Source: a virus
Taxonomy: Duplodnaviria > Heunggongvirae > Uroviricota > Caudoviricetes
DNA: 64,000 nucleotides
IMG/VR virus record: IMGVR_UViG_2675903278_000002
Strand: one strand, 5' to 3'
The notes below the pieces were generated by a model. That model was not told where the DNA came from, did not search any database, and saw nothing but the letters and a program-made list of their open reading frames with translations. How positions within the stretch are numbered: the stretch's first letter is position 1; every line of letters starts with the position of its first letter. The position numbers and the translations under genes are program-made. This document shows, piece after piece, positions 3,583-62,059 of this stretch.

Positions 3583-4452
3583 ATGAACTTTACCAAACTG
3601 ACTGACCACCTGAAACTTGCCACCGATCGACTCATTGGATTTAAGCCAGAACCATATGAGTTGCATGAAGGCCATGGTGTAGCCACTGAAAGTATTTACA
3701 AGATGGTCGATCAGTTTCATGAACTCTTCCAGCATCCGAGACGCGTTATGCCGACACCAGAGCTGCTTCGTCTCCGTGCAAGCCTGATTCATGAAGAAGC
3801 TGTAGTGGAAGGTATTCCAGCCGCAATGAATGGGGATATTGAGCAACTGCTGGATGCAATGGCCGACTTTTTATACGTTGGTGTTGGTACGATGGTCGCC
3901 ATCAAAGGTGGTATTTCTACCGGCATGACCTATTACACGCAGGAACAGAGCATTGATCGCTTTATGCAGACAATTTTTGTGCCCGGTAACACTGTTTTCG
4001 ATGATATGGCAATGCCATTTCAGGAAGCTCGTGAGGCGTCATGTATGCTCGAAGAGCTGGCAGATAAACTTGAGAACAAGACTGTTAAGGATTCTGAGCT
4101 GATTCAGGAACTGCGCCGTGTCATGAACAAAATCTATGTGGCGTGCATGATGACCTATCGACTGGCTGATTTCCTCGGTATCAATGTAGTCGAGCTGGTT
4201 GGCGAAATTCATCGGTCTAACATGACAAAATTATGGCCTGCTGATGTTGAGGAACGTCGCCAGGCTGTGGCCAACTGCAAATACGACTCTTCAGATCTGG
4301 GATTCCGCCATGCTGATGGCACCGATAAGATGATCGGTTTTCGAATTTCCGATGGAAAGATTCTGAAGTCTCCAACCTATAGTGATGTCGATTTATCCTC
4401 CTTTGTTGAGCAAGCTAAAGCCTCAGCAATGTACGGAATGATCAAAAAATAA
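3583..4452 (+). CDS. MazG-like all-alpha NTP pyrophosphohydrolase (tandem-domain)
   Basis: EExxE...D metal-binding pattern (LIHEEAVVEG...EQLLDAMADFLYV) and C-terminal EIHRSNMTKL typical of the MazG/HisE-like family. SD GAAGGA lies upstream. Confidence 0.5.
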   Translation: MNFTKLTDHLKLATDRLIGFKPEPYELHEGHGVATESIYKMVDQFHELFQHPRRVMPTPELLRLRASLIHEEAVVEGIPAAMNGDIEQLLDAMADFLYVGVGTMVAIKGGISTGMTYYTQEQSIDRFMQTIFVPGNTVFDDMAMPFQEAREASCMLEELADKLENKTVKDSELIQELRRVMNKIYVACMMTYRLADFLGINVVELVGEIHRSNMTKLWPADVEERRQAVANCKYDSSDLGFRHADGTDKMIGFRISDGKILKSPTYSDVDLSSFVEQAKASAMYGMIKK

Positions 4453-4454
4453 TT

Positions 4455-4471
4455 GTAGGTAGTTATCTATC
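4455..4471. promoter_or_regulatory. Box B palindrome-family copy (degenerate)
   Basis: GTAGGTAGTTATCTATC, 3 nt after the stop codon. Same core as the copy at 45037. Confidence 0.45.
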
Positions 4472-4515
4472 TGTGTATATTGCGTTGGCGCGTTAAATTT
4501 CTGAAACAACTATTC

Positions 4516-4548
4516 GTTTTTGGTGGCCTATGGCCACCATTTTTTTAT
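4516..4548 (+). terminator. Rho-independent terminator
   Basis: TGGTGGCC-tat-GGCCACCA followed by TTTTTTT. Confidence 0.8.
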
Positions 4549-4591
4549 CTGTCTGGTCTTGTTCTCTCAATAAATGTAAACTCACGCAATG

Positions 4592-4609
4592 AATAAGTGG
4601 TTACTTATC
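4592..4609. promoter_or_regulatory. Box B palindrome copy
   Basis: AATAAGTggTTACTTATC, 15 nt upstream of the thyA GTG start. Confidence 0.55.
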
Positions 4610-4623
4610 TTTGTGAGGTTTTT

Positions 4624-5727
4624 GTGTCACTCCTTTTGAATCGTGAGCATACGAACGGTCAGGTAACAAACGCATCGTATGCAAAAGTTATTGAGACGGT
4701 GCTTAAAAGCGGCGTGCAGGCTGATGATCGCACAGGCACTGGTACTTTAAGCACCTGCTACGTTCCCTCTTACTACATGCTTACTGGTGGGACTGTGCCG
4801 CTTATTTCTGGAAAGGCGGTAAATCTTAAGCCACTGCTTGTCGAACTTGAGTGGTATCTGAAAGGCACGGGCAACATCCAATTTCTCAAGGATAACGGCG
4901 TTAAGATTTGGGATGCATGGGCCGATGAGAATGGCGATTTGGGGCCGGTTTACGGTAAGCAGTGGCGTCGATGGGAAGATACCCGCATCGTGAGCCATAG
5001 TGAATATCTGAGCAAGATCGCTACTTTCCGTGAACGCGGGTACAAAGTCGAGGGATACCTGGGTATCAGTGAAGATCGCGTAGTGCTGTCCCGTGAAATC
5101 GATCAGCTACAGCGTATTGTCGATACACTGCGCACGAACCCTACCGATCGTCGCATCATGCTTAACGCATGGAACGTAGGCGAGCTTGAGGATATGAAAC
5201 TGCCACCTTGCCACTTTGTCTTCTCTTTGTGGAGTCGTGAGCTGGATTTTGAAACCCGTTTAACGATGGCAACTGACATTGGTCTTCAACACAGTCGCCT
5301 CGGTTATGAGTCTATCTACACCAAGATGCTATACGATCTGGAGATGGACGGCAGTGTTACTGAAACTGAACTGGATGAACTTGGAATCCCCAAACGCATC
5401 CTCAACTCCTGCCTCGTACAGCGTAGCGTAGACACTTTTGTTGGTATGCCATTCAATATTGCTGGCTATGGCATTCTCACTCATTTTCTCGCGAAGATTA
5501 CGGGTCACATGGCCGGTGCATTTGTGCATTTTGGCTTTGACGTGCATTTATACAATAACCACATGGAAAGTGTGTGTGAGCTAATGAAACGACAGGCTCC
5601 AGAGCATTCAGATCCGGTCGTTATTTTCCCTCATGAATGGTCTGAGCTGGATGATTTCAAATGGGACGATATTCTGATTCTTGGCTATGACCCTCTACCG
5701 TGGATCAAGGTTCCAGTGGCGGTGTGA
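4624..5727 (+). CDS. thyA: Thymidylate synthase homologue with two large insertions
   Basis: Motifs DRTGTGT, WADENGDLGPVYGKQWR, LPPCH, QRSVD, PFNIAGY and DVHLYNNH are present. I moved the start to GTG 4624, which has GAGG 5 nt upstream (the track starts at 4597, inside Box B). Confidence 0.85.
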   Translation: MSLLLNREHTNGQVTNASYAKVIETVLKSGVQADDRTGTGTLSTCYVPSYYMLTGGTVPLISGKAVNLKPLLVELEWYLKGTGNIQFLKDNGVKIWDAWADENGDLGPVYGKQWRRWEDTRIVSHSEYLSKIATFRERGYKVEGYLGISEDRVVLSREIDQLQRIVDTLRTNPTDRRIMLNAWNVGELEDMKLPPCHFVFSLWSRELDFETRLTMATDIGLQHSRLGYESIYTKMLYDLEMDGSVTETELDELGIPKRILNSCLVQRSVDTFVGMPFNIAGYGILTHFLAKITGHMAGAFVHFGFDVHLYNNHMESVCELMKRQAPEHSDPVVIFPHEWSELDDFKWDDILILGYDPLPWIKVPVAV

Positions 5728-5728
5728 T

Positions 5729-6142
5729 ATGGCAAGAGGTATGTATGTCTTATGCGAAATTGAAGGTGTGCTGGCAAATGCCAGCCATCGTAAATCAGTA
5801 TCTGACGCGGATGCAGGCCAGCTCATTGCCGGTGATGAACTCATTTTCCCCACCAGCCGTATGTTGCGTGGTTTTGCTCGCTCAGGGGCTGAAGTGGTGC
5901 TTATCAGTAGCCGCTCTGAAACTCTTGAAGCGCCAACTAAACGATGGCTGAAAGATTTTGGCGTTGATTATGACTGGCTTCATCTCGTACCGAATGGCAC
6001 CAGTTATGAGAAGCATATTAAGCGCACATTAGCGGAGCATAAAGGCGATCTGCTTATCGCTGCGCTGGTGCACGATCCTCGACTCCGTGCCGCTTTAGCC
6101 GACTCTCACCATCGACCGGTCATCTATGAGGTGAGCAAATGA
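5729..6142 (+). CDS. Hypothetical protein (possibly HAD-like fold, non-canonical motif I)
   Basis: ATG lies 2 nt after the thyA stop, and the stop overlaps the folA start (ATGA). MYVLCEIEGVLAN sits where HAD motif I would be but lacks DxD. Confidence 0.45.
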   Translation: MARGMYVLCEIEGVLANASHRKSVSDADAGQLIAGDELIFPTSRMLRGFARSGAEVVLISSRSETLEAPTKRWLKDFGVDYDWLHLVPNGTSYEKHIKRTLAEHKGDLLIAALVHDPRLRAALADSHHRPVIYEVSK

Positions 6143-11052: not shown

Positions 11053-11646
11053 ATGACGACGAAGACACCAGCCCGATCGCAAGAAAAAACTCGCAAAAAA
11101 GCCAAAAACAAAAATTCTCCCCGCACCAATTCCACAACGCCTGTCGTAGAGTTCAATCCCCAGCTTAAAACCGTGAAAATCTTCAGTGATGGCTCTTGCC
11201 TTAAAAATCCGGGTGGCCCGGGCGGTTACGGTATAGTTCTCCAGTATCGTGGTGAGGAACGCGAGTTCTCAGATGGTTTTCATAGCACCACCAATAACCG
11301 CATGGAGATGATGGGGGCACTTATCGGGCTGGAGCGTTTGAAATATCCATGCAACGTTATTTTGCACTCTGATAGCCAGTATCTGAAAAACGGCATGACA
11401 CAGTGGATGAAATGGTGGAAACGCAATGGATGGGTGACTTCTGACAAAAAACCGGTAAAGAATGTTGATCTGTGGAAGCGTCTGGATGAGGCTGCAAGTC
11501 GACATAATGTTCGCTGGAAGTGGGTTAAAGGTCACGCCGGGCATCGTGAAAATGAAATATGTGATCGACTCGCGAAGATCGCAGCTTTTTCCGCAGCAGA
11601 TATGCCTCACAAGAAAGATATTGGTTTTGTTTACAACAAGCAGTAA
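11053..11646 (+). CDS. rnhA: Ribonuclease HI with ~40-aa basic N-terminal extension
   Basis: Motifs [35 protein letters not shown] and [13 protein letters not shown] are collinear with E. coli RnhA. ATG 11053 has AGGAG upstream. Confidence 0.9.
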
Positions 11647-11663
11647 GTAAGTGTTTACCTATC
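11643..11663. promoter_or_regulatory. Box B palindrome-family copy
   Basis: GTAAGTAAGTGTTTACCTATC, which includes the rnhA stop TAA. Confidence 0.5.
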
Positions 11664-16613: not shown

Positions 16614-16633
16614 TAGGTAAATACTTACCTAAT
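16613..16633. promoter_or_regulatory. Box B palindrome copy
   Basis: ATAGGTAAatacTTACCTAAT, starting within the methylase stop (TGATAGG). Confidence 0.55.
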
Positions 16634-33065: not shown

Positions 33066-33097
33066 AAAAATAATAACCGGACTTAGCCGGTTATTAA
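33066..33097 (-). terminator. Rho-independent terminator
   Basis: On the minus strand: TAATAACCGG-ctaagt-CCGGTTATTA followed by TTTTT. Confidence 0.8.
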
Positions 33098-33107
33098 CCT
33101 TATAGAT

Positions 33108-33416
33108 TTATTGAACAGACTCTACAGCCTTACGATTGGTGTCAAATAGCGCATCAACGAACTGTGCCGATGACTCGCTAGATTCGCAATCCAACATTGC
33201 CCGTTCTTCATTTGCCACTTTCTTACACAGTTCCACATTCTCACCTATCGCTTTTCCTGCTTTTACGGCTGCCGAAAATTGATACATGCAAACTGATACA
33301 TTCTGAGACGTTGAGCACACGTCATTCATCAGCGACTGAATGACAGGCTTATAGTCCATTGCATTTGCCGCAACTGAGCAAAGTAAAAATAATGGTGGTA
33401 ACAATATCGATTTCAT
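33108..33416 (-). CDS. Secreted Cys-containing small protein
   Basis: Signal peptide MKSILLPPLFLLCSVAANA. 102 aa. Confidence 0.55.
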   Translation of the reverse strand: MKSILLPPLFLLCSVAANAMDYKPVIQSLMNDVCSTSQNVSVCMYQFSAAVKAGKAIGENVELCKKVANEERAMLDCESSESSAQFVDALFDTNRKAVESVQ

Positions 33417-33419
33417 AAC

Positions 33420-33944
33420 TCAAAAAGGCAAAATTCGTTCAACCCAATCGAACAAAACAACTATTTTTCTACCGTTCTCGACACGTAGTGTAACCTGACA
33501 AGCATCTGCGCCTGCTGACACCCCCTCAATTTCACGGCCATCCGCCATGTACACCCTTATAGATTTGTTTGCTTTGTAGGCTTGGTTGCAAATTGCAAAA
33601 AAATCGCGGCGTGATGGCCGATTATCGACATAATCAGGGTGAACTGTTAGTCGACCTTTGAAATCGTGAGCGATACTGTCAACCACACCTGATTCAATTG
33701 TACTAATGCGTTCAAGTGGGAGCCTTATACGATTTTCTTTGTCAAAAGGGGCTGGGCAAAGGTCAACTTTGTTACGAGATGGCATGAGGCCATAAACGTA
33801 CATGCAAAACGCCTGGCCATCTTCGAGAGTGACCCTTACAGGAATTTGTTCTCTGCGCCAGAACATCAGTAGTTTTTCAACGTTAGTGTAATCTCGCGGC
33901 CAGAGTTCAGCTTGGATACCGTAGGTAATATCTTTGGTTGTCAT
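33420..33944 (-). CDS. Hypothetical protein (two beta-rich halves, possibly Sm-like)
   Basis: Start uncertain (33944 or 34022). Segments VRVTLEDGQAFCMYVYG and IRVYMADGREIEGV...VTLRVENGRKIVVLFDWVERI. Confidence 0.45.
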   Translation of the reverse strand: MTTKDITYGIQAELWPRDYTNVEKLLMFWRREQIPVRVTLEDGQAFCMYVYGLMPSRNKVDLCPAPFDKENRIRLPLERISTIESGVVDSIAHDFKGRLTVHPDYVDNRPSRRDFFAICNQAYKANKSIRVYMADGREIEGVSAGADACQVTLRVENGRKIVVLFDWVERILPF

Positions 33945-33948
33945 ATCA

Positions 33949-34413
33949 TCACAGAGTTGTTGGCAGAATGTCGATGTCACCAGAATTGCTGGTAAACACC
34001 CTGAACGCTTTTGTGTCTCCATTCTTCAGAGTCGTTTCTCGCTCTTGACGAGCGGGGTTTAGAGCACATAAACCTGCACCTTCAAGAGATGCACCCACAA
34101 TTAATTCTCCGGCATTTAAATGGAAAGTCGCTTTTTCGCCTGTAGCCAGTTTTGCGACAGTTTCGCCGTTGATGAAAATGGAAGCATCACATCCAGCTCC
34201 TACAAAACCTGTGTCTCTCATTACCACCAACGTAGCTGGCGCTGCGCTTTGATACTTGAACACTTTGGCCTGCGGTGCTGGTTTGGCGTCATGGATTGAT
34301 ATTGGGTGTGATTGGCACGCGGCAAGCATCAACACTGGTAACGTTAGTAGAGGGAGAAGCGAGTATTTCATGATAGTTTTAGAACAGAAAGTGAACAGTA
34401 TGGGAGACTTCAT
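33949..34413 (-). CDS. Lipoprotein
   Basis: Lipobox LPVLMLAA-C. GGGAGA SD lies before ATG 34413. Confidence 0.6.
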   Translation of the reverse strand: MKSPILFTFCSKTIMKYSLLPLLTLPVLMLAACQSHPISIHDAKPAPQAKVFKYQSAAPATLVVMRDTGFVGAGCDASIFINGETVAKLATGEKATFHLNAGELIVGASLEGAGLCALNPARQERETTLKNGDTKAFRVFTSNSGDIDILPTTL

Positions 34414-34439
34414 CTTTGTCTCCCTAATTGATAGCGTGA

Positions 34440-34718
34440 TTATTTTAATCTGCTTAATAGCGTTTCGAGATCTTCCTTTGTCATATTAGAGTTCTCATAG
34501 ATACGCATGATTTTCTCACGAGTCTTAGCGGAAGCCCCGACAGAAGATATAACCTTGTCAAAGTCGGCCATTGTCAATTGTTCCAGAATGGTATTTATGA
34601 CTTCAGCCTTAGACATTTTGATATTTTTTTCTTTTAGTTTCACTTGAAACTTTCCAAGTTTGTCATTGGCCTTATCAGACAATGCTACCTGACAGTAAGT
34701 TGTTTTCTTTTCACTCAT
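34440..34718 (-). CDS. Hypothetical protein
   Basis: 92 aa. Starts 2 nt after the helicase stop. Confidence 0.5.
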   Translation of the reverse strand: MSEKKTTYCQVALSDKANDKLGKFQVKLKEKNIKMSKAEVINTILEQLTMADFDKVISSVGASAKTREKIMRIYENSNMTKEDLETLLSRLK

Positions 34719-34720
34719 AA

Positions 34721-36280
34721 CTAATCTCGTTTCAGAACTCCAAAATCGAATGCTCCATCAATAGGCAATACACCTTCTGCAAAGCCAGGTGTGGTGTCGA
34801 TGATGTGTTTTCGCTCATAAGAGTGAGACAACAGGTATTTGTTGCTAATGTCAATGAAATCAGTGATAAAACACACGTTTGCCTGATTTTTTTTGGCTCG
34901 TAAGCCACGACCGACACGCTGCCTCATTTCAACTTCTGCTTTTCCACCACCAGCCAGAATGACCGCACCAACGCTTGGCACATCAACACCGACATCCAGA
35001 ATAGTCGAGCCTATTAAAACATCTATTTCGCCAGACGCTAAACTGTTCAGCTTTGCTTGCCTTGTCGCCTGGTTCGATTCCCCATAGATGAAGTCAACTT
35101 TAAGACCTGACTCCTTCATCATCTCCATCAGGATTTGCCCGTGGCGTTTAAGACGAACCAGAGTCATGCAATTGAGAGAATGTTGCTTATAGAGCAATGC
35201 TTCGCGCACAATGGCCTCGTTACGTCCCAAATTATACACGATCCCCAACTGATAAGCCTTTTGGTAGGCTGTGCTCATACCTACTCTAAAATTAAGGTGT
35301 TTGTTGGCAAGTTCCGCCTTGATTCTGACCTCGTCTGGCTTGTAAGCAACTTTATGATAAAGGAAGTACGGTTTTGCCAGAATGCCTCGATCAATCAGGT
35401 ACTTTTCTGTGACTTTAATTTCAATTCGACCGGCCACAGCCATCAGACGCATGTTGGCTTCTGTAGAATCCTTCATGAACGGCGTGGCCGTAAGCGCCAG
35501 ACGATAGTCTGCGTTCACACATAATCTGGCAATGTCATAGAAATTAGAGCCTGAAGACTCATGCGCTTCTTCCAGAATAAGCAGAGACACACTTGAAAGG
35601 AAGCGTTTCACCAACTCCCGACGTTTGAGGTGGTAGCTTTTCTTATCTGGTGTTGCATCGCGTGGTGGTTCTTCGAGGAAACTTGCAAGAGTTTGAACTG
35701 TAGCGACGTTGATATGTCGTGATACCTGGAACTCACCCGAGCCAATGACTCCAACCTTTTGGTCTTTTAACCACGGTTCGCCATTTTCGGCGCGGTAGTC
35801 GATGGATCTCTGGAAGTTTTCGGCCATTTGAAACATCAGAACAGAGCGGGTTGTTAAAAATAATGTCATTCGACCGATACGTGCAGCTGCTTTGCAGGCA
35901 ACGTTAGATTTCCCGCCACCAGTAGCGATCTGCGCAATCATCATTCCCTCTCGAACCAGTGTTTCCACAGTCTGATCCTGATACGCATAATCAGGATTGT
36001 ATGGGAATGGGTTAACCGCCGGATTTGGTTTACCAAGCGCCGGGGCTTTGTCTTTGCGGATATGAACACATTTGATGCCCGCCTTGTTCAAGTTCGCCGC
36101 TACAGGCTTGGCAAAGCCAGCAGGGAACGAGTTTTTACTCCAGTTGAACATCGTGCTTGTGCCCTTCCAGTCGCCAGTCTCGACTTCGTAGCTCAACATT
36201 TGCTGCACCAGTTGCTTTACCTTGTCATCTGCGCCAGAAATAAGCGCATTTACTGCGTTAGATACAATCCGAACAGTCAT
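34721..36280 (-). CDS. Superfamily-2 DEAD/DEAH-type helicase
   Basis: Motif I IATGGGKS, motif II LLILEEAHE, motif III LTATP, motif VI QRVGRGLR. Confidence 0.8.
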   Translation of the reverse strand: MTVRIVSNAVNALISGADDKVKQLVQQMLSYEVETGDWKGTSTMFNWSKNSFPAGFAKPVAANLNKAGIKCVHIRKDKAPALGKPNPAVNPFPYNPDYAYQDQTVETLVREGMMIAQIATGGGKSNVACKAAARIGRMTLFLTTRSVLMFQMAENFQRSIDYRAENGEPWLKDQKVGVIGSGEFQVSRHINVATVQTLASFLEEPPRDATPDKKSYHLKRRELVKRFLSSVSLLILEEAHESSGSNFYDIARLCVNADYRLALTATPFMKDSTEANMRLMAVAGRIEIKVTEKYLIDRGILAKPYFLYHKVAYKPDEVRIKAELANKHLNFRVGMSTAYQKAYQLGIVYNLGRNEAIVREALLYKQHSLNCMTLVRLKRHGQILMEMMKESGLKVDFIYGESNQATRQAKLNSLASGEIDVLIGSTILDVGVDVPSVGAVILAGGGKAEVEMRQRVGRGLRAKKNQANVCFITDFIDISNKYLLSHSYERKHIIDTTPGFAEGVLPIDGAFDFGVLKRD

Positions 36281-36325
36281 AAACCTCTTTCCTTAGTGCC
36301 TTTTGTATGTTATTTGGCTATTATA

Positions 36326-36345
36326 ATAAGTAAGTGATTACTTAG
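36326..36345. promoter_or_regulatory. Box B palindrome copy in the divergent helicase/ParB-like intergenic region
   Basis: ATAAGTAAgtgaTTACTTAG. Confidence 0.55.
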
Positions 36346-36362
36346 TGGATTGTAGCAATAAA

Positions 36363-37043
36363 ATGGATGTAAAAATCACGATTTTGCAGGTTGATGTTGC
36401 CAACCTTCGCCCGAATACCTGGAACACCAATTCGGTTGGTGCGCAGAATTTTGAAAAACTGAAAGGTTCTATCGAAAAATTGGGCTTTTTTAAGCCAATT
36501 TTGGCTCGTGAACTTGAAGATGGATTTTTTGAAATCCTCGGCGGTGAACATCGCTGGCGTGCTGCTATTGAGCAAGGAATTTCAACGGTTCCGGTGCTTT
36601 CTGTGGGCAAAATTAGCGATGTCGTAGCTAAACAGATGTCACTGGTGGACAACGAGCGATACGGTGAAGACGACCAAATCGCATTGCAACGCTTCATTGA
36701 AGAAATTCAGTCAGAACTTGACTATCAACTGTCTGAAATCGCCCCGTATGACGACGAAATCTCGATGGTTTTAGCAAAAGAGGCGGCAATCGACCTTGAA
36801 GCACTGGAGGCGTTGTCTCGTGGTAGTGATGAGCCTGTCGATACCGACAAACGAGAGAAAACCGAACGTGTGGGTGCGGAACATCAGACCATGCGCTTCA
36901 AAGTAACTTTCGATGCGTCAGATCGTGTTGCAGAAACCATAAAAAACATCATCAAAGAGCAGGCTATTAACACCGGTAATGAAATGGAGAACGCTGGTGA
37001 GGCTCTGGTGTGGCTGGTCGACTACTACAAGGAGCGTATGTAA
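36363..37043 (+). CDS. ParB/Srx-fold (ParB N-terminal domain) protein 1
   Basis: PILARELEDGFFEILGGEHRWRAA carries the GxxHR ParB box. The start is either ATG 36363 or GTG 36345. Confidence 0.7.
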   Translation: MDVKITILQVDVANLRPNTWNTNSVGAQNFEKLKGSIEKLGFFKPILARELEDGFFEILGGEHRWRAAIEQGISTVPVLSVGKISDVVAKQMSLVDNERYGEDDQIALQRFIEEIQSELDYQLSEIAPYDDEISMVLAKEAAIDLEALEALSRGSDEPVDTDKREKTERVGAEHQTMRFKVTFDASDRVAETIKNIIKEQAINTGNEMENAGEALVWLVDYYKERM

Positions 37044-37711
37044 TGACCAAAAAGTTTGAAATCGTATATCGCGACCCGGCAGATCTTATTCCCTATGAGA
37101 TGAATGCCAAAAAGCATGATGAACAGCAGATCAGAGATTTGGCCGCAGCCATTAAAAAGCGCGGATTTGACCAGCCAATTACGGTCGATAAGAACGACGT
37201 AATTATTACTGGCCACGGCCGCCGTGAGGCTGCAATTTTTGCTGGACTTGAGCGCGTACCGGTTATTGTTCGTGATGATCTGAGTGATGACGAGGTTCGT
37301 GCGAAGCGCCTTGAAGATAACCGACTTGCCAGCATTGATTACGATGCAATTAAGCTACAGAAAGAGCTTGAGTCGCTTGTTCTGGACGATATTGAGGTTT
37401 TCGGCTTTGAAGAGCGTGAGTTGAATGTTCTCGTTGGCAGTATGACAGAAGAAATGGACACCGACTCGCTAGTTATCGATCTTGGCGAAGAAACTAAACG
37501 ACAGAAGGATGAACACACCGAGATCAGTCGTGAAGTTGCAGCGGAAGAAGTACGTGTTGTCGACGTATTGGGCTTTAAAACGCTCCCTGCTGGCTCTGCC
37601 ATTGTTGTTGGTGATTTGCTTGCCCATATGGAAGAAATGACGGGAGAAAGCGGGGTAGACGCATTTGTGGCATATGCGGAGAAGATCTCTTCCGGGGAGA
37701 TGGCTGCATGA
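37043..37711 (+). CDS. ParB-like nuclease-domain protein 2
   Basis: TAATG coupling with AAGGAG upstream. Motifs QPITVDKNDVIITGHGRREAA and VPVIV. Confidence 0.7.
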   Translation: MTKKFEIVYRDPADLIPYEMNAKKHDEQQIRDLAAAIKKRGFDQPITVDKNDVIITGHGRREAAIFAGLERVPVIVRDDLSDDEVRAKRLEDNRLASIDYDAIKLQKELESLVLDDIEVFGFEERELNVLVGSMTEEMDTDSLVIDLGEETKRQKDEHTEISREVAAEEVRVVDVLGFKTLPAGSAIVVGDLLAHMEEMTGESGVDAFVAYAEKISSGEMAA

Positions 37712-38373
37712 GCAAATACATCATCAACGTATCGTTTCAGACACGCGTAAATAAAACCACGCGCACGTTGGAAATCGCTGAGTCGTTCGGGCTTGGCCTG
37801 GACGAAAAAGAGTGGACGCTTTACGACAATCTGGAGCTGGAAGTGAAGCAGGGCGATGTGGTGTACATCACCGGCCAATCCGGTTCCGGCAAATCCGTTG
37901 TGCTGCGCGAGTTGCAACGACAGATGAAGGATGAAGGGCTGTCTGTAGCCTCCATCGATGATTTTACCTTCGATAATGAGGTTAACGTCATCGATCAGTT
38001 GGGCAAAACGACCAGTGATGCGCTTGGGTTGTTATCTATGGCTGGTCTGAACGATGCATATCTGTTTGTTCGCAAGCCTTCTGAAATGTCAGACGGCCAG
38101 AAATATCGTCTCAAGATTGCCAAACTGATTGAGTCAGGCGCTAAAGTATGGGCTGCTGACGAGTTCGGCGCTGTTCTCGACCGTGTAACCGCTCAGGTTG
38201 TGGCGTCTAACCTCCAGCGTGCCGCTCGAAAGGTTGGTGCGACGGTAATGGTGGCGACGACTCACGAAGACCTGAAGAACGCGCTGCGCCCTGATATGCA
38301 GATCACCAAGCACTACAAAGAACGCGTGAAGGTGGAATATCACAATGGTAGTCATGATGAGGTCCATTCATGA
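37708..38373 (+). CDS. Soluble ABC-type ATPase
   Basis: Walker A GQSGSGKS, signature MSDGQKYR, Walker B VWAADEF, H-loop TTHE. ATGA overlap with the upstream gene. Confidence 0.75.
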   Translation: MSKYIINVSFQTRVNKTTRTLEIAESFGLGLDEKEWTLYDNLELEVKQGDVVYITGQSGSGKSVVLRELQRQMKDEGLSVASIDDFTFDNEVNVIDQLGKTTSDALGLLSMAGLNDAYLFVRKPSEMSDGQKYRLKIAKLIESGAKVWAADEFGAVLDRVTAQVVASNLQRAARKVGATVMVATTHEDLKNALRPDMQITKHYKERVKVEYHNGSHDEVHS

Positions 38374-39260
38374 CGGACATCATCATTAAACGCTACCGCC
38401 CTGAAGAGTTTCCGCGTCATCTGGACTTTCTGGAGCGAATGACTGTTACAAAGGGAACTGTAGAGGACTGGCACGCTCTTAAGTCGCTTCACTACAAAAC
38501 AGACGGCAAACCTTTCGCGCCAACTTACTATCGCTGCGAACTTGATGACCGTCTGGTGGGCGTCGTGGTTATGGCTTACCCGAAACTACTGTTGGCACCT
38601 CGCCACCGCATGTTTCCTAAGTTGAAACCAACCACTAATACCACCGTGGCTAACCAGTACTGGGGTCGGTACGTGAATAACAACTTTGCGGTGATCAGTC
38701 GCTCAGTTGTGGATACTCAGTATCGTGGCGTAGGCGTCTCTTATAGAATGATTAACCTGGTTAGCAGGATGCATGACCGGCCAATCATTGAGATCCAGTC
38801 CTCGATGAGCAAATACAATCCCTTCGCCATGAAAGCAGGGTTTAAGTTCATCCGCCCTGAGCGACCGAAGAGCTATGAAAGTGCACTGCGTGTGTTCCAG
38901 CGCCATTTCCGCTCCGACCCGGGTGATAACGAGGCGATCGTCAAAGAGTTGTTCGCTATGAGCGAGTCTCGTCGTCGCCGTGCGCTGCGCGATTTGGTGG
39001 CGGACTACCATAAGAACAGTTCCCTGGCAAAAGCTGGGCGGAATCGTGGCACGACGATTCAGGACATTGCCGACAGTCTGGTGGACGAGGCCAGCATTGT
39101 GAAGCTGCTCAAGGACATTCACAACCTGAGCTTTACGTCTCCGTTGTATGGTGTGTACCGAAACCCTGACTTTGGCCGTCGACTGCCTGACACGCTGCCA
39201 CTGCTGGCATTCGACAAACAACCTTTGGATAAACCGTTAGAAATTGCTTTACCGGCATAA
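38370..39260 (+). CDS. Hypothetical protein with GNAT-like acetyltransferase core
   Basis: ATGA overlap with the upstream gene. VDTQYRGVGVSYRMI resembles GNAT motif A (Q/RxxGxG/A). Confidence 0.45.
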   Translation: MTDIIIKRYRPEEFPRHLDFLERMTVTKGTVEDWHALKSLHYKTDGKPFAPTYYRCELDDRLVGVVVMAYPKLLLAPRHRMFPKLKPTTNTTVANQYWGRYVNNNFAVISRSVVDTQYRGVGVSYRMINLVSRMHDRPIIEIQSSMSKYNPFAMKAGFKFIRPERPKSYESALRVFQRHFRSDPGDNEAIVKELFAMSESRRRRALRDLVADYHKNSSLAKAGRNRGTTIQDIADSLVDEASIVKLLKDIHNLSFTSPLYGVYRNPDFGRRLPDTLPLLAFDKQPLDKPLEIALPA

Positions 39261-41646: not shown

Positions 41647-43221
41647 ATGGAATTGAACGACAAACAAATTAAGGATCTGGTGGCGCGACGCCACCCGGAA
41701 TACGAAAAGAAAAAAGAACATTGGGACTTCCTCGCCAGCACTTACGCTGGCGGGCGTGGTTGGTTTACAGACAATATCTTTCGTTACTTTAAAGAGGGAG
41801 ATCAGGAGTTTAAGGAGCGAGTTGAACGTGCTTATCGCTTCAACCACACTCGTGAGGTGGTAAACCTCATCAACAAATATCTCTTTAAAGAAGACATTCA
41901 TAGAAATATCGAAGAGGCACCAGAGCAGATCCGCAATTTCTGGAAACGTGCGACTCGCCAGAATGCCTCTATTGACTCATTTATGGCCGCTATTGATTTG
42001 CAGTCGTCTATTTACGGTCGCATATGGGTTGTTGTCGATAGCACGATGAGTGGTGATGTTGAGTCAGTAGCTGACGAGAAAAAGAAAGATGCTCGCGCCT
42101 ACGCCTACTGGATTTCACCTCAGCAAATGCTGGATGTGGCATGGGACGACGACGGGAATATGTTGTGGGCGTTAATTGTGGAAGTCGCTCGTGATGACGC
42201 AGATCCTTTTACTTCTACAGGTCAGGAATACCAACGTTATCGTCTGTGGACACAAAACGAGTGGTATCTGTTCCGTGAGGAAGTGAAGAAGGGCGCTGGT
42301 GGAGCAGGTCGCCGTCAGGCAAAAGTTATTTTAGAGGATAGCGGTGAGCATAATCTCGGCGTAGTTCCTGTGTTTCCTGTTGATTGTATTGGAGAAAGTG
42401 AATCACCGTATTTCAGCCCATCGTTGATCGATGATATCGCTTATCTTGATCGTGCGGTTGCAAACTATCTGTCAAACCTTGATGCCATTATTCAGGATCA
42501 GACATTTAGCCAGTTGGCTATACCGGTACAGTCGCTTTTACCTGGTGATGAAAACCACACTAAAGTGCTTGAAATGGGCACAAAGCGAGTATTCACCTAC
42601 GATTCTGAAGGTGGAAACCAGCCGTTTTATCTGTCACCAGACCCGAAACAAGCTCAGATGATCATCACTACGATTAAGACGGTGATTAACGAAATCTACC
42701 ATTCAGTTGGTGTAGCTGGTGAGCGAACGAAGCAGGACAACGCACAGGGAATCGATAATTCATCTGGTGCCGCAAAAATGTATGACTTCCAGCGTGTAAA
42801 TAGCTTGCTTGTCACAAAAGCAGAGCGTCTGGAAAGGGCTGAACGCCAAATCATGCTACTGGTTGCGAAATGGATGGGGGTAGATCTGGACGAAGACCAC
42901 TCTTTAATTGCGTATCCAGAAAGTTTCGATATTCGTGGCCTTACTGATGAATTTTCTGTTGCCGAGAAACTGTCATTACTTCAGGCACCGGACTCTGTAC
43001 GTCGTCACCAGATGGAAATGCTTATTGAGAAGATTTTCCCGAACATTACTGAGGCGATGAAAAAGGAATTTGATAAAGATCTCTTGAATTTTCCTCCAAA
43101 AAATGATCTAAATACCCTTGAAAATAAGTCAGTACTTACTTATGATCGTGGTGCAGCCCAAGAAAGCGGGCAAGATCAACCCCGAGGGAATGGGGACTCA
43201 TCTACTCAAGAGAACGAGTGA
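41647..43221 (+). CDS. Portal protein
   Basis: 524 aa, directly downstream of the large terminase. The call rests on size and synteny. Confidence 0.75.
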   Translation: MELNDKQIKDLVARRHPEYEKKKEHWDFLASTYAGGRGWFTDNIFRYFKEGDQEFKERVERAYRFNHTREVVNLINKYLFKEDIHRNIEEAPEQIRNFWKRATRQNASIDSFMAAIDLQSSIYGRIWVVVDSTMSGDVESVADEKKKDARAYAYWISPQQMLDVAWDDDGNMLWALIVEVARDDADPFTSTGQEYQRYRLWTQNEWYLFREEVKKGAGGAGRRQAKVILEDSGEHNLGVVPVFPVDCIGESESPYFSPSLIDDIAYLDRAVANYLSNLDAIIQDQTFSQLAIPVQSLLPGDENHTKVLEMGTKRVFTYDSEGGNQPFYLSPDPKQAQMIITTIKTVINEIYHSVGVAGERTKQDNAQGIDNSSGAAKMYDFQRVNSLLVTKAERLERAERQIMLLVAKWMGVDLDEDHSLIAYPESFDIRGLTDEFSVAEKLSLLQAPDSVRRHQMEMLIEKIFPNITEAMKKEFDKDLLNFPPKNDLNTLENKSVLTYDRGAAQESGQDQPRGNGDSSTQENE

Positions 43222-55117: not shown

Positions 55118-55143
55118 GGATAAGTAAGTACTAATTTACTATC
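55118..55143. promoter_or_regulatory. Box B palindrome-family copy
   Basis: GGATAAGTAAGTACTAATTTACTATC. Confidence 0.5.
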
Positions 55144-62038: not shown

Positions 62039-62059
62039 ATAGGTAAGTATTTACTTAAT
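62039..62059. promoter_or_regulatory. Box B palindrome copy
   Basis: ATAGGTAAGTATTTACTTAAT, followed by the hairpin GGCGGG-n9-CCCGCC and AAGGAG. Confidence 0.55.

Follow-up and report, generated by a model that had tools for sequence, protein, structure and literature searches.

Which kind of genetic unit joins a DNA helicase with proteins that are exported from the cytoplasm? This question is raised by a cluster of five genes on the minus strand (positions 33,108–36,280) of a 64,000-nucleotide (nt) stretch of DNA from a virus (Caudoviricetes, IMG/VR record IMGVR_UViG_2675903278_000002); the whole stretch will be called the window. The genes code for a helicase of superfamily 2 (SF2) with 519 amino acids (aa), a protein of 92 aa, a lipoprotein, a protein of 174 aa and an exported protein of 102 aa (Table 1). 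An earlier note on this DNA had described the five genes, the lipobox, the signal peptide and the cysteine-containing 102-aa product, all of which agree with the list of open reading frames (ORFs) and with PHROG matches. It could not assign the cluster to a known system, and by eye it saw a weak resemblance of the 174-aa product to Sm/Hfq folds. We will show that the 174-aa protein can be assigned to the FljA family and the cluster to the backbone of SSU5-like phage-plasmids. The resemblance to Sm/Hfq is better founded than the note thought.

The 174-aa protein belongs to the FljA family

The Pfam profile PF03614 (Flag1_repress) matches the 174-aa protein along its full length (profile positions 1–170 of 170) with 282 bits, the cutoff being 24, and E values of 1.5e-84 to 2.5e-84. 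This match places it clearly in the FljA family. The longest ORF begins at 34022 and would give 200 aa, yet every homologue begins at the methionine of the 174-aa form.

Two Sm/Hfq-like domains in tandem

An AlphaFold2 model of the protein was built on an alignment of 33 sequences. It has a predicted local distance difference test score (pLDDT) of 83.7 and a predicted template modelling score of 0.80. Two units follow each other in the chain and each of them has a helix and then five strands, as assigned by DSSP (Table 1). The Pfam profile of Hfq (PF17209) gives 19.6 bits at residues 120–162, below its cutoff of 27, and TIGR02383 gives 13 bits, below its cutoff of 61.7. Such sub-threshold Hfq matches are found in 13 of the 33 family members, and LSM matches in two of them. 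An exhaustive HMMER search over 1.84 billion representatives found only 31 members of the family.

These 31 include proteins of 174 aa from Providencia. One of them (P0155) exceeds the gathering scores of both profiles in overlapping residues, with 28.0 against 27 for Hfq and 28.1 against 24 for Flag1_repress; a second one (P0156) passes Flag1_repress and reaches 26.0 of the 27 bits for Hfq. The first one can also be aligned with Aquifex Hfq over 62 residues (E 1.5e-4). Profile comparisons with hhalign are all in register: the C-terminal half against Hfq (E 3.4e-5, 57 columns), the N-terminal half against the C-terminal half (E 1.5e-4, 62 columns) and the N-terminal half against Hfq (E 3.3e-4). 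Distant members were necessary for these comparisons to be informative: with close homologues alone the probability for the two halves was below 10%. NCBI gives the name 'RNA chaperone Hfq' to the two Providencia proteins, and also to the orthologues which Morganellaceae elements carry at the position of this gene.

Residues typical of Hfq are replaced. In the position of its Sm2 motif Y-K-H-A-I-S the family has an invariant F-D-W-V-x-R-I, and the arginine patch of the rim (RRER) is replaced by residues of K/N type in the alignments. The protein may thus be placed in the Sm/Hfq superfamily in a tandem form, but it is no Hfq, because the YKH motif is replaced and the scores stay below the Hfq thresholds. 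We conclude from the model and the alignments that it is built of two predicted Sm/Hfq-like domains and that the same applies to FljA-family proteins. The likeness that the earlier note had seen by eye is therefore sustained by the two units of the model, the sub-threshold Hfq matches, the Providencia protein and hhalign. Hfq itself forms a homo-hexameric ring; it is conceivable that three tandem chains form a pseudo-hexameric ring as a trimer. A search of the PDB with the family profile gave nothing significant, a fold search of BFVD with the model gave no convincing two-domain match, and within the searchable library we found no paper which links FljA to the Sm/Hfq fold or to phage-plasmids.

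Outside both Sm barrels there is a stretch, ITYG..AE.WPRDY (residues 5–19, window positions 33888–33932), which is the best conserved part in common with canonical FljA. It overlaps residues 1–13 of the model, where pLDDT is below 50, and the clades that diverge most either lack it or have it in altered form. This stretch might serve as an arm that binds RNA or a partner.

Distribution and evolution of the FljA-like gene

The gene is found in 835 plasmid records. The numbers of records with the FljA-like gene and with the helicase are 345/346 in Klebsiella, 229/228 in Escherichia, 92/92 in Enterobacter and 62/62 in Yersinia. Even in far relatives it lies 3' of the helicase and its small partner, as is the case in a Klebsiella element (36% identity), in K. 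oxytoca and in Moellerella. Acinetobacter elements have the helicase and its small partner, and no FljA-like gene could be detected in them. The ratio of nonsynonymous to synonymous substitution rates (dN/dS) is 0.09–0.17 where dS is unsaturated, with a value of 0.16 for pMT1 against pHCM2. In a pair of Klebsiella lineages the proportion of nonsynonymous differences is 0.18, against a saturated synonymous proportion of 0.79. These values indicate that the gene is under purifying selection and that it persists in the elements of Enterobacterales.

A neighbour-joining tree separates the canonical FljA, window-type and Kp36-type clades from the Providencia/Xenorhabdus and Klebsiella-166 clades with 80% bootstrap. 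It suggests that the flagellar repressor FljA is an offshoot of the phage-plasmid family.

Several records of the gene are irregular. In the Moellerella element (L012) it is annotated 34 codons short (4600–5025), since the ORF of 175 aa occupies 4498–5025. A protein from a record named Gemella morbillorum (P0079) matches in its first half and then diverges completely, which suggests a chimeric or contaminated record. A copy in an E. coli chromosome of 5.2 Mb (P0074) has a scrambled internal stretch and is possibly a decaying integrated copy.

The element is a phage-plasmid of the SSU5 type

The E. coli plasmid CP059946.1 matches the 3.4-kb region of the cluster at 99.8% identity, and 109 plasmid records contain at least 80% of its length; nearly all of them have about 100–115 kb and are non-mobilizable. 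Salmonella phage SSU5 has 79% identity with the same region. The annotated neighbourhoods are alike in SSU5, pHCM2 of S. Typhi, pMT1 of Y. pestis, Klebsiella elements and phage Cyrano: two genes of ParB type and an ABC ATPase are divergent from the helicase, with the portal gene further on. From these shared neighbourhoods and the plasmid and phage matches we identify the window as an SSU5/pHCM2/pMT1-type phage-plasmid of E. coli. Its cluster is ordinary, heavily sampled phage-plasmid backbone with cargo.

The divergent plus-strand operon, from 36345–39260 onward, codes for two proteins with a ParB N-terminal domain, an ABC-type ATPase and a protein of 296 aa, which in Cyrano is annotated as an ATPase fused to an acetyltransferase domain. 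The portal gene lies downstream of this operon, whose conservation extends to Acinetobacter. The GC minimum of the window (0.40) is found at 32–34 kb, and Rfam and tRNA scans of the window gave zero matches.

The other genes of the cluster

The five genes are real and not chance ORFs, as it is apparent from three sources. Each protein matches a PHROG family (E from about 1e-46 to 1e-100); the helicase, the lipoprotein, the FljA-like and the 102-aa proteins have homologues in 259–1002 plasmid records each; and the dN/dS of the FljA-like gene is low. The gaps between them are, in order, 2 nt, 26 nt (68 nt with the annotated start of the lipoprotein), 4 nt and 3 nt. The spacing of 2–5 nt previously given for all of them is thus right at three of the four junctions and wrong between the 92-aa protein and the lipoprotein.

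The helicase contains the domains PF04851 ResIII (E 1e-14), PF00270 DEAD (2e-14) and PF00271 Helicase_C (3e-13), so that the SF2 core is present. It corresponds to phrog_16, 'DNA helicase' (E 1e-93), and its best sequence matches in the PDB are XPBII (2.5e-12), Rad25 and T4 UvsW (2e-8), in agreement with the SF2 assignment made before. It is 90–99.8% identical across SSU5-like elements of Enterobacterales and is found in 1002 plasmid records. On these matches we consider it an XPB/UvsW-like SF2 DNA helicase and a backbone gene of the phage-plasmids.

Its 92-aa partner is phrog_1466 (E 5e-46). In the relatives the gene always lies directly 3' of the helicase, and homologues were present in the five relatives tested (34–100% identity). 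The pair reaches Acinetobacter elements at 42% identity and is, as judged from this distribution, the oldest conserved pair of the cluster. Neither the protein nor its orthologues have a significant Pfam or PDB match. By eye the N-terminus looks like a ribbon-helix-helix, which we mention as a lead. As an assignment it is not supported: six orthologues gave no Pfam support, hhalign to the Acinetobacter counterpart gave a probability of 0.8%, and a weak match to RHH_4 (E 0.025) appears in that counterpart only.

The lipoprotein is phrog_890, 'lipoprotein' (E 6e-52), with a weak match to DUF2846 in Pfam; a sequence search of the PDB gave nothing significant. Its lipobox L-A-A-C lies within LPVLMLAAC and is followed by Gln at +2; the segment MKYSLLPLLTLPVLMLAA-C, read by eye, agrees with the pattern [LVI][ASTVI][GAS]C. 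The ATG at 34413 has a better Shine-Dalgarno sequence than the annotated start at 34371. A lipoprotein on the same strand is found between the 92-aa and FljA-like genes in the window, SSU5, pMT1 and pHCM2; in Cyrano, in a second Klebsiella lineage (Kp65) and in another E. coli lineage (Ec68) unrelated genes fill its place. Homologues are also found on unrelated plasmids. The lipoprotein gene therefore occupies a variable cargo slot of the backbone. In the Klebsiella element L005 a distant homologue (4399–4836, 28% identity) keeps the slot position on the opposite strand; since it is inverted, the slot has been rearranged and not merely refilled.

The 102-aa protein (phrog_9536) has an N-terminus, MKSILLPPLFLLCSVAANA, with the form of a signal peptide and a mature part with four cysteines; both features are kept in homologues down to 23% identity. 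Its AlphaFold2 model (pLDDT 72) is a three-helix bundle with helices at residues 23–34, 40–66 and 77–101, and a sequence search of the PDB with the family found nothing significant. The gene is present in the window, pHCM2 and the Kp79 and Kp36 lineages, directly 3' of the FljA-like gene, and is absent elsewhere, including SSU5, pMT1 and Cyrano. Only 12 clusters were found among 5.8 billion proteins. We describe its product as an optional exported protein, with three helices presumably stapled by disulfides between its four invariant cysteines. Many of its tblastn matches have no annotated feature. Two intact, unannotated homologues lie 3' of the FljA-like gene, at 3959–4267 in pHCM2 (L008, NZ_CP029876.1) and at 5526–5834 in the Klebsiella plasmid pY9645-105 (L005), and they keep the signal peptide and the four cysteines.

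When neighbourhoods are compared, the positions of the helicase, the 92-aa and the FljA-like genes are conserved; the lipoprotein slot and the 102-aa gene vary. The flanking genes are equally syntenic, so that the conserved order is better explained by collinearity of the backbone than by functional coupling. The cluster reads as a mosaic of backbone, a variable slot, the persistent 174-aa gene and the optional 102-aa gene, and not as a dedicated system.

Control region and transcription signals

Between the helicase and the ParB-like gene there is a perfect 18-bp palindrome, TAAGTAAGTGATTACTTA. It belongs to a dispersed set of sites with the consensus TAAGTAAGT-NN-TTACTTA: with up to 2 mismatches there are 7 sites in the window, mostly at gene boundaries, against 0.00 expected from shuffles. 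All 12 relatives examined, Acinetobacter among them, have a variant no more than about 140 nt 5' of the helicase ATG; the distance is 38–64 nt except in the K. oxytoca element. The palindrome probably serves as an operator or as part of a promoter in a phage-plasmid regulon which includes this cluster.

At the other end of the cluster the strong terminator that had been placed at 33066–33097 is confirmed as a hairpin (33096–33071) followed by TTTTT. Weak sigma-70-like matches (9 of 12 positions) are found on the minus strand at 34439–34468 and 33945–33974, directly 5' of the lipoprotein and FljA-like starts, and are possible internal promoters. Klebsiella relatives have a gene on the opposite strand between the helicase and the FljA-like gene. 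Internal promoters would fit this arrangement, which does not allow a common transcript of the helicase and the FljA-like gene.

Table 1. Position of genes, predicted domains and signals. Coordinates refer to the window, unless a relative is named.
Feature	Position	Strand	Details
SF2 DExH helicase, 519 aa	34721..36280	-	ORF list
92-aa protein	34440..34718	-	ORF list
Lipoprotein	33949..34413	-	140 aa from 34371 (start annotated in relatives) or 154 aa from 34413
FljA-family protein, 174 aa	33420..33944	-	ORF list and homologue starts
N-terminal Sm-like unit, residues 20–85 (predicted)	33690..33887	-	Helix 20–31; strands 36–40, 45–54, 59–63, 72–76, 80–85 (DSSP of model)
C-terminal Hfq-homologous unit, residues 113–173 (predicted)	33426..33608	-	Helix 113–124; strands 128–133, 138–146, 150–154, 160–164, 168–173
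Exported 102-aa protein	33108..33416	-	ORF list
Intrinsic-terminator-like hairpin	33066..33096	-	10-bp stem, 6-nt loop (33096–33071), then TTTTT
Divergent control region	36281..36362	.	Helicase start to ParB-like gene start, 82 nt
Palindrome sites, window	4590–4607, 11644–11661, 16614–16631, 36327–36344, 43125–43142, 55121–55138, 62040–62057		
Palindrome sites, relatives	L012 1105–1122; L013 3906–3923, 7398–7415		

The likely role of the 174-aa protein

FljA and a plasmid-borne homologue (z66) block the translation of fliC mRNA post-transcriptionally, according to PMC2652032, where Bonifield & Hughes 2003 and Yamamoto & Kutsukake 2006 are cited for it; bioRxiv 10.1101/2025.10.27.684867 gives the same mode of action for FljA. 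Our literature search found no experiment with members of the phage-plasmid clade. If the analogy with FljA holds, the 174-aa protein would bind the leader of one or more specific mRNAs and block their translation. Its main targets would be transcripts of the phage-plasmid or others which do not code for flagellin. Three observations point in this direction: the gene persists in these elements, it has no linked flagellin gene (the N-terminal region of FliC as tblastn query gave nothing in the 64-kb window), and it is under purifying selection in the elements of non-flagellate hosts. Klebsiella, Y. pestis and Moellerella are hosts of this kind. Silencing of fliC in flagellated hosts might be a side or secondary effect. 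A phage protein with a comparable task is RegA of T4, a translational repressor which is encoded among DNA-replication genes and binds phage mRNA leaders. A RegA-like role on the element's own mRNAs is the one we favour, with a chance that we would put at about even.

The organization of the locus would then be as follows. The minus strand would start from the 82-nt divergent control region with its 18-bp palindrome. First would come the helicase and its 92-aa partner, as a phage replication/recombination module, and next the variable cargo slot, here occupied by a putative outer-membrane lipoprotein. The FljA-family protein with its two Sm/Hfq-like domains, the optional exported 102-aa protein and the terminator would follow. 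The simplest view of the lipoprotein and the presumably periplasmic 102-aa protein would be that they are envelope cargo of particular lineages; it might act in surface modification or superinfection exclusion, to name two examples. Taken as a whole, the explanation by a backbone segment which is no self-contained system, with an FljA-like protein acting mainly on mRNAs of the element or other non-flagellin mRNAs, seems to us somewhat more probable than its opposite.

Several points weigh against this explanation. The Sm assignment of the N-terminal domain is derived from the topology of the model and from modest hhalign scores (probability 38–51%). No RNA target was identified. A blastn-short search for sequences like the fliC leader in the window gave only chance matches (best E 1.2), and no other target site was found either. 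The motifs ITYG..AE.WPRDY and FDWV.RI, common with canonical FljA, would fit a common type of target. The argument drawn from the hosts is weakened by the possibility that phage-plasmids are exchanged between hosts with and without flagella. Finally, repression of fliC is the only function known so far in the family.

The alternative which survives best is a lysogenic conversion of motility: the 174-aa protein would bind the 5' leader of host fliC and shut off the synthesis of flagellin. The gain would be a saved cost, a hidden major antigen or the removal of the receptor of flagellotropic phages, and both the lipoprotein and the periplasmic protein would add to this cargo by remodelling the surface. 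The hosts of the window lineage, E. coli and Salmonella, are indeed flagellated, but the gene persists just as well, and is likewise under purifying selection, in the elements of the non-flagellate hosts Klebsiella (345 records), Y. pestis (pMT1, 62 records) and Moellerella. Membership of the FljA family is strong and some residues are invariant between canonical FljA and the phage-plasmid clade, although overall identity is only about 38% and the N-terminal WPRDY motif is missing from those positional orthologues that diverge most. FljA homologues on plasmids are indeed post-transcriptional repressors of fliC (PMC2652032) and the gene adjoins envelope-directed cargo genes; however, the 64-kb window has no partner flagellin gene to replace FliC in the tblastn search. 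We regard this conversion as possible but doubtful.

A general RNA chaperone similar to Hfq, which brings small RNAs and mRNAs together or competes with the Hfq of the host and is no sequence-specific repressor, seems improbable. The homology of the C-terminal domain with Hfq and the NCBI name of the Providencia members speak for it; the change of YKH into FDW, the loss of the arginine patch, the failure to reach the Hfq thresholds (19.6 against 27 bits, 13 against 61.7 bits), the tandem architecture and the known behaviour of the family indicate a specific repressor instead.

Finally, a single dedicated system in which the helicase is coupled to envelope effectors (anti-phage, exclusion or plasmid maintenance) is very improbable: the common strand, the gaps of mostly 2–4 nt, the single terminator-like site at the cluster end, the identical five-gene order in pHCM2 and partial matches of the helicase to PbeA and Dnd-restriction models would agree with it, but the genes between the 92-aa and FljA-like genes vary by lineage and are sometimes on the opposite strand, SSU5, pMT1 and Cyrano are among the elements with no 102-aa gene, of the five genes only those of the helicase and its small partner are kept in Acinetobacter elements, lipoprotein homologues are found on unrelated plasmids and the flanking genes are just as syntenic. 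The odd unknown system of the earlier note is thus not supported, since the slot and the 102-aa gene come and go and the Acinetobacter pair has no FljA-like gene. A defence function, for which a database check had been proposed, was also rejected: PADLOC-DB 2.0 detected no defence system with the five proteins, the helicase had only generic SF2 matches which cover part of the models (PbeA, 5e-23, and others), and the other four proteins had none or matches at chance level.

The preferred reading, a translational regulator acting mainly on non-flagellin mRNAs, can be extended to the whole family. FljA-family proteins could primarily be tandem-Hfq translational regulators of phage-plasmids, which act on their own mRNAs for replication, the lysis-lysogeny choice or late genes. 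The FljA of Salmonella and E. coli would be a domesticated offshoot, and a possible trimer would mimic the six-membered Sm ring. A single conserved locus, which the SSU5-type elements have throughout Enterobacterales, would contain nearly all the sequence diversity of the family. We offer this extension tentatively and consider it rather unlikely in its full form.

Significance

Until now FljA has been regarded as an accessory of flagellar phase variation that is specific to Salmonella. Should it be a two-domain relative of Hfq, its mode of RNA binding becomes directly testable and the bacterial Sm superfamily gains a new tandem architecture. If its main home is the SSU5/pHCM2/pMT1 backbone, these elements, often found in clinical E. 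coli, Klebsiella, S. Typhi and Y. pestis, carry a dedicated and so far unstudied post-transcriptional regulator. Depending on its target, it would bear on the stability and induction of the element or on the motility and antigenicity of the host. The points of interest are therefore the tandem Hfq-like fold of the FljA family, a persistent gene which has not been studied and the conserved palindrome which marks the control region.

Comparison with known systems

The helicase shares the ResIII/DEAD and Helicase_C cores with XPB/Rad25 and T4 UvsW. It differs from them by an N-terminal region of about 100 residues with no family match, and they have no known equivalent of the 92-aa partner. With T4 RegA the 174-aa protein would have in common its way of working only: a relation in sequence or fold is not expected.

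In comparison with FljA of Salmonella enterica, the 174-aa protein has a full-length family match, a similar size (174 against 179 aa) and the same invariant motifs, ITYG..AE.WPRDY at the N-terminus, SRRDFF..C, and at the C-terminus FDWV.RI. However, identity with canonical FljA is only 37–39%, and the gene sits in a phage-plasmid backbone beside a helicase and persists in elements of non-flagellate hosts. Canonical FljA is found downstream of the fljB flagellin gene with its invertible or phase-variable promoter, whereas the neighbours of the 174-aa gene code for a lipoprotein and a secreted protein (an invertase was not looked for). With Hfq (PF17209) it has in common a bridge in sequence through the Providencia-type members, the predicted Sm topology and, by analogy, a role in RNA binding. 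It differs from Hfq by the absence of the Sm2 YKH motif and of the rim patch, and by the presence of two predicted Sm units in each chain instead of one.

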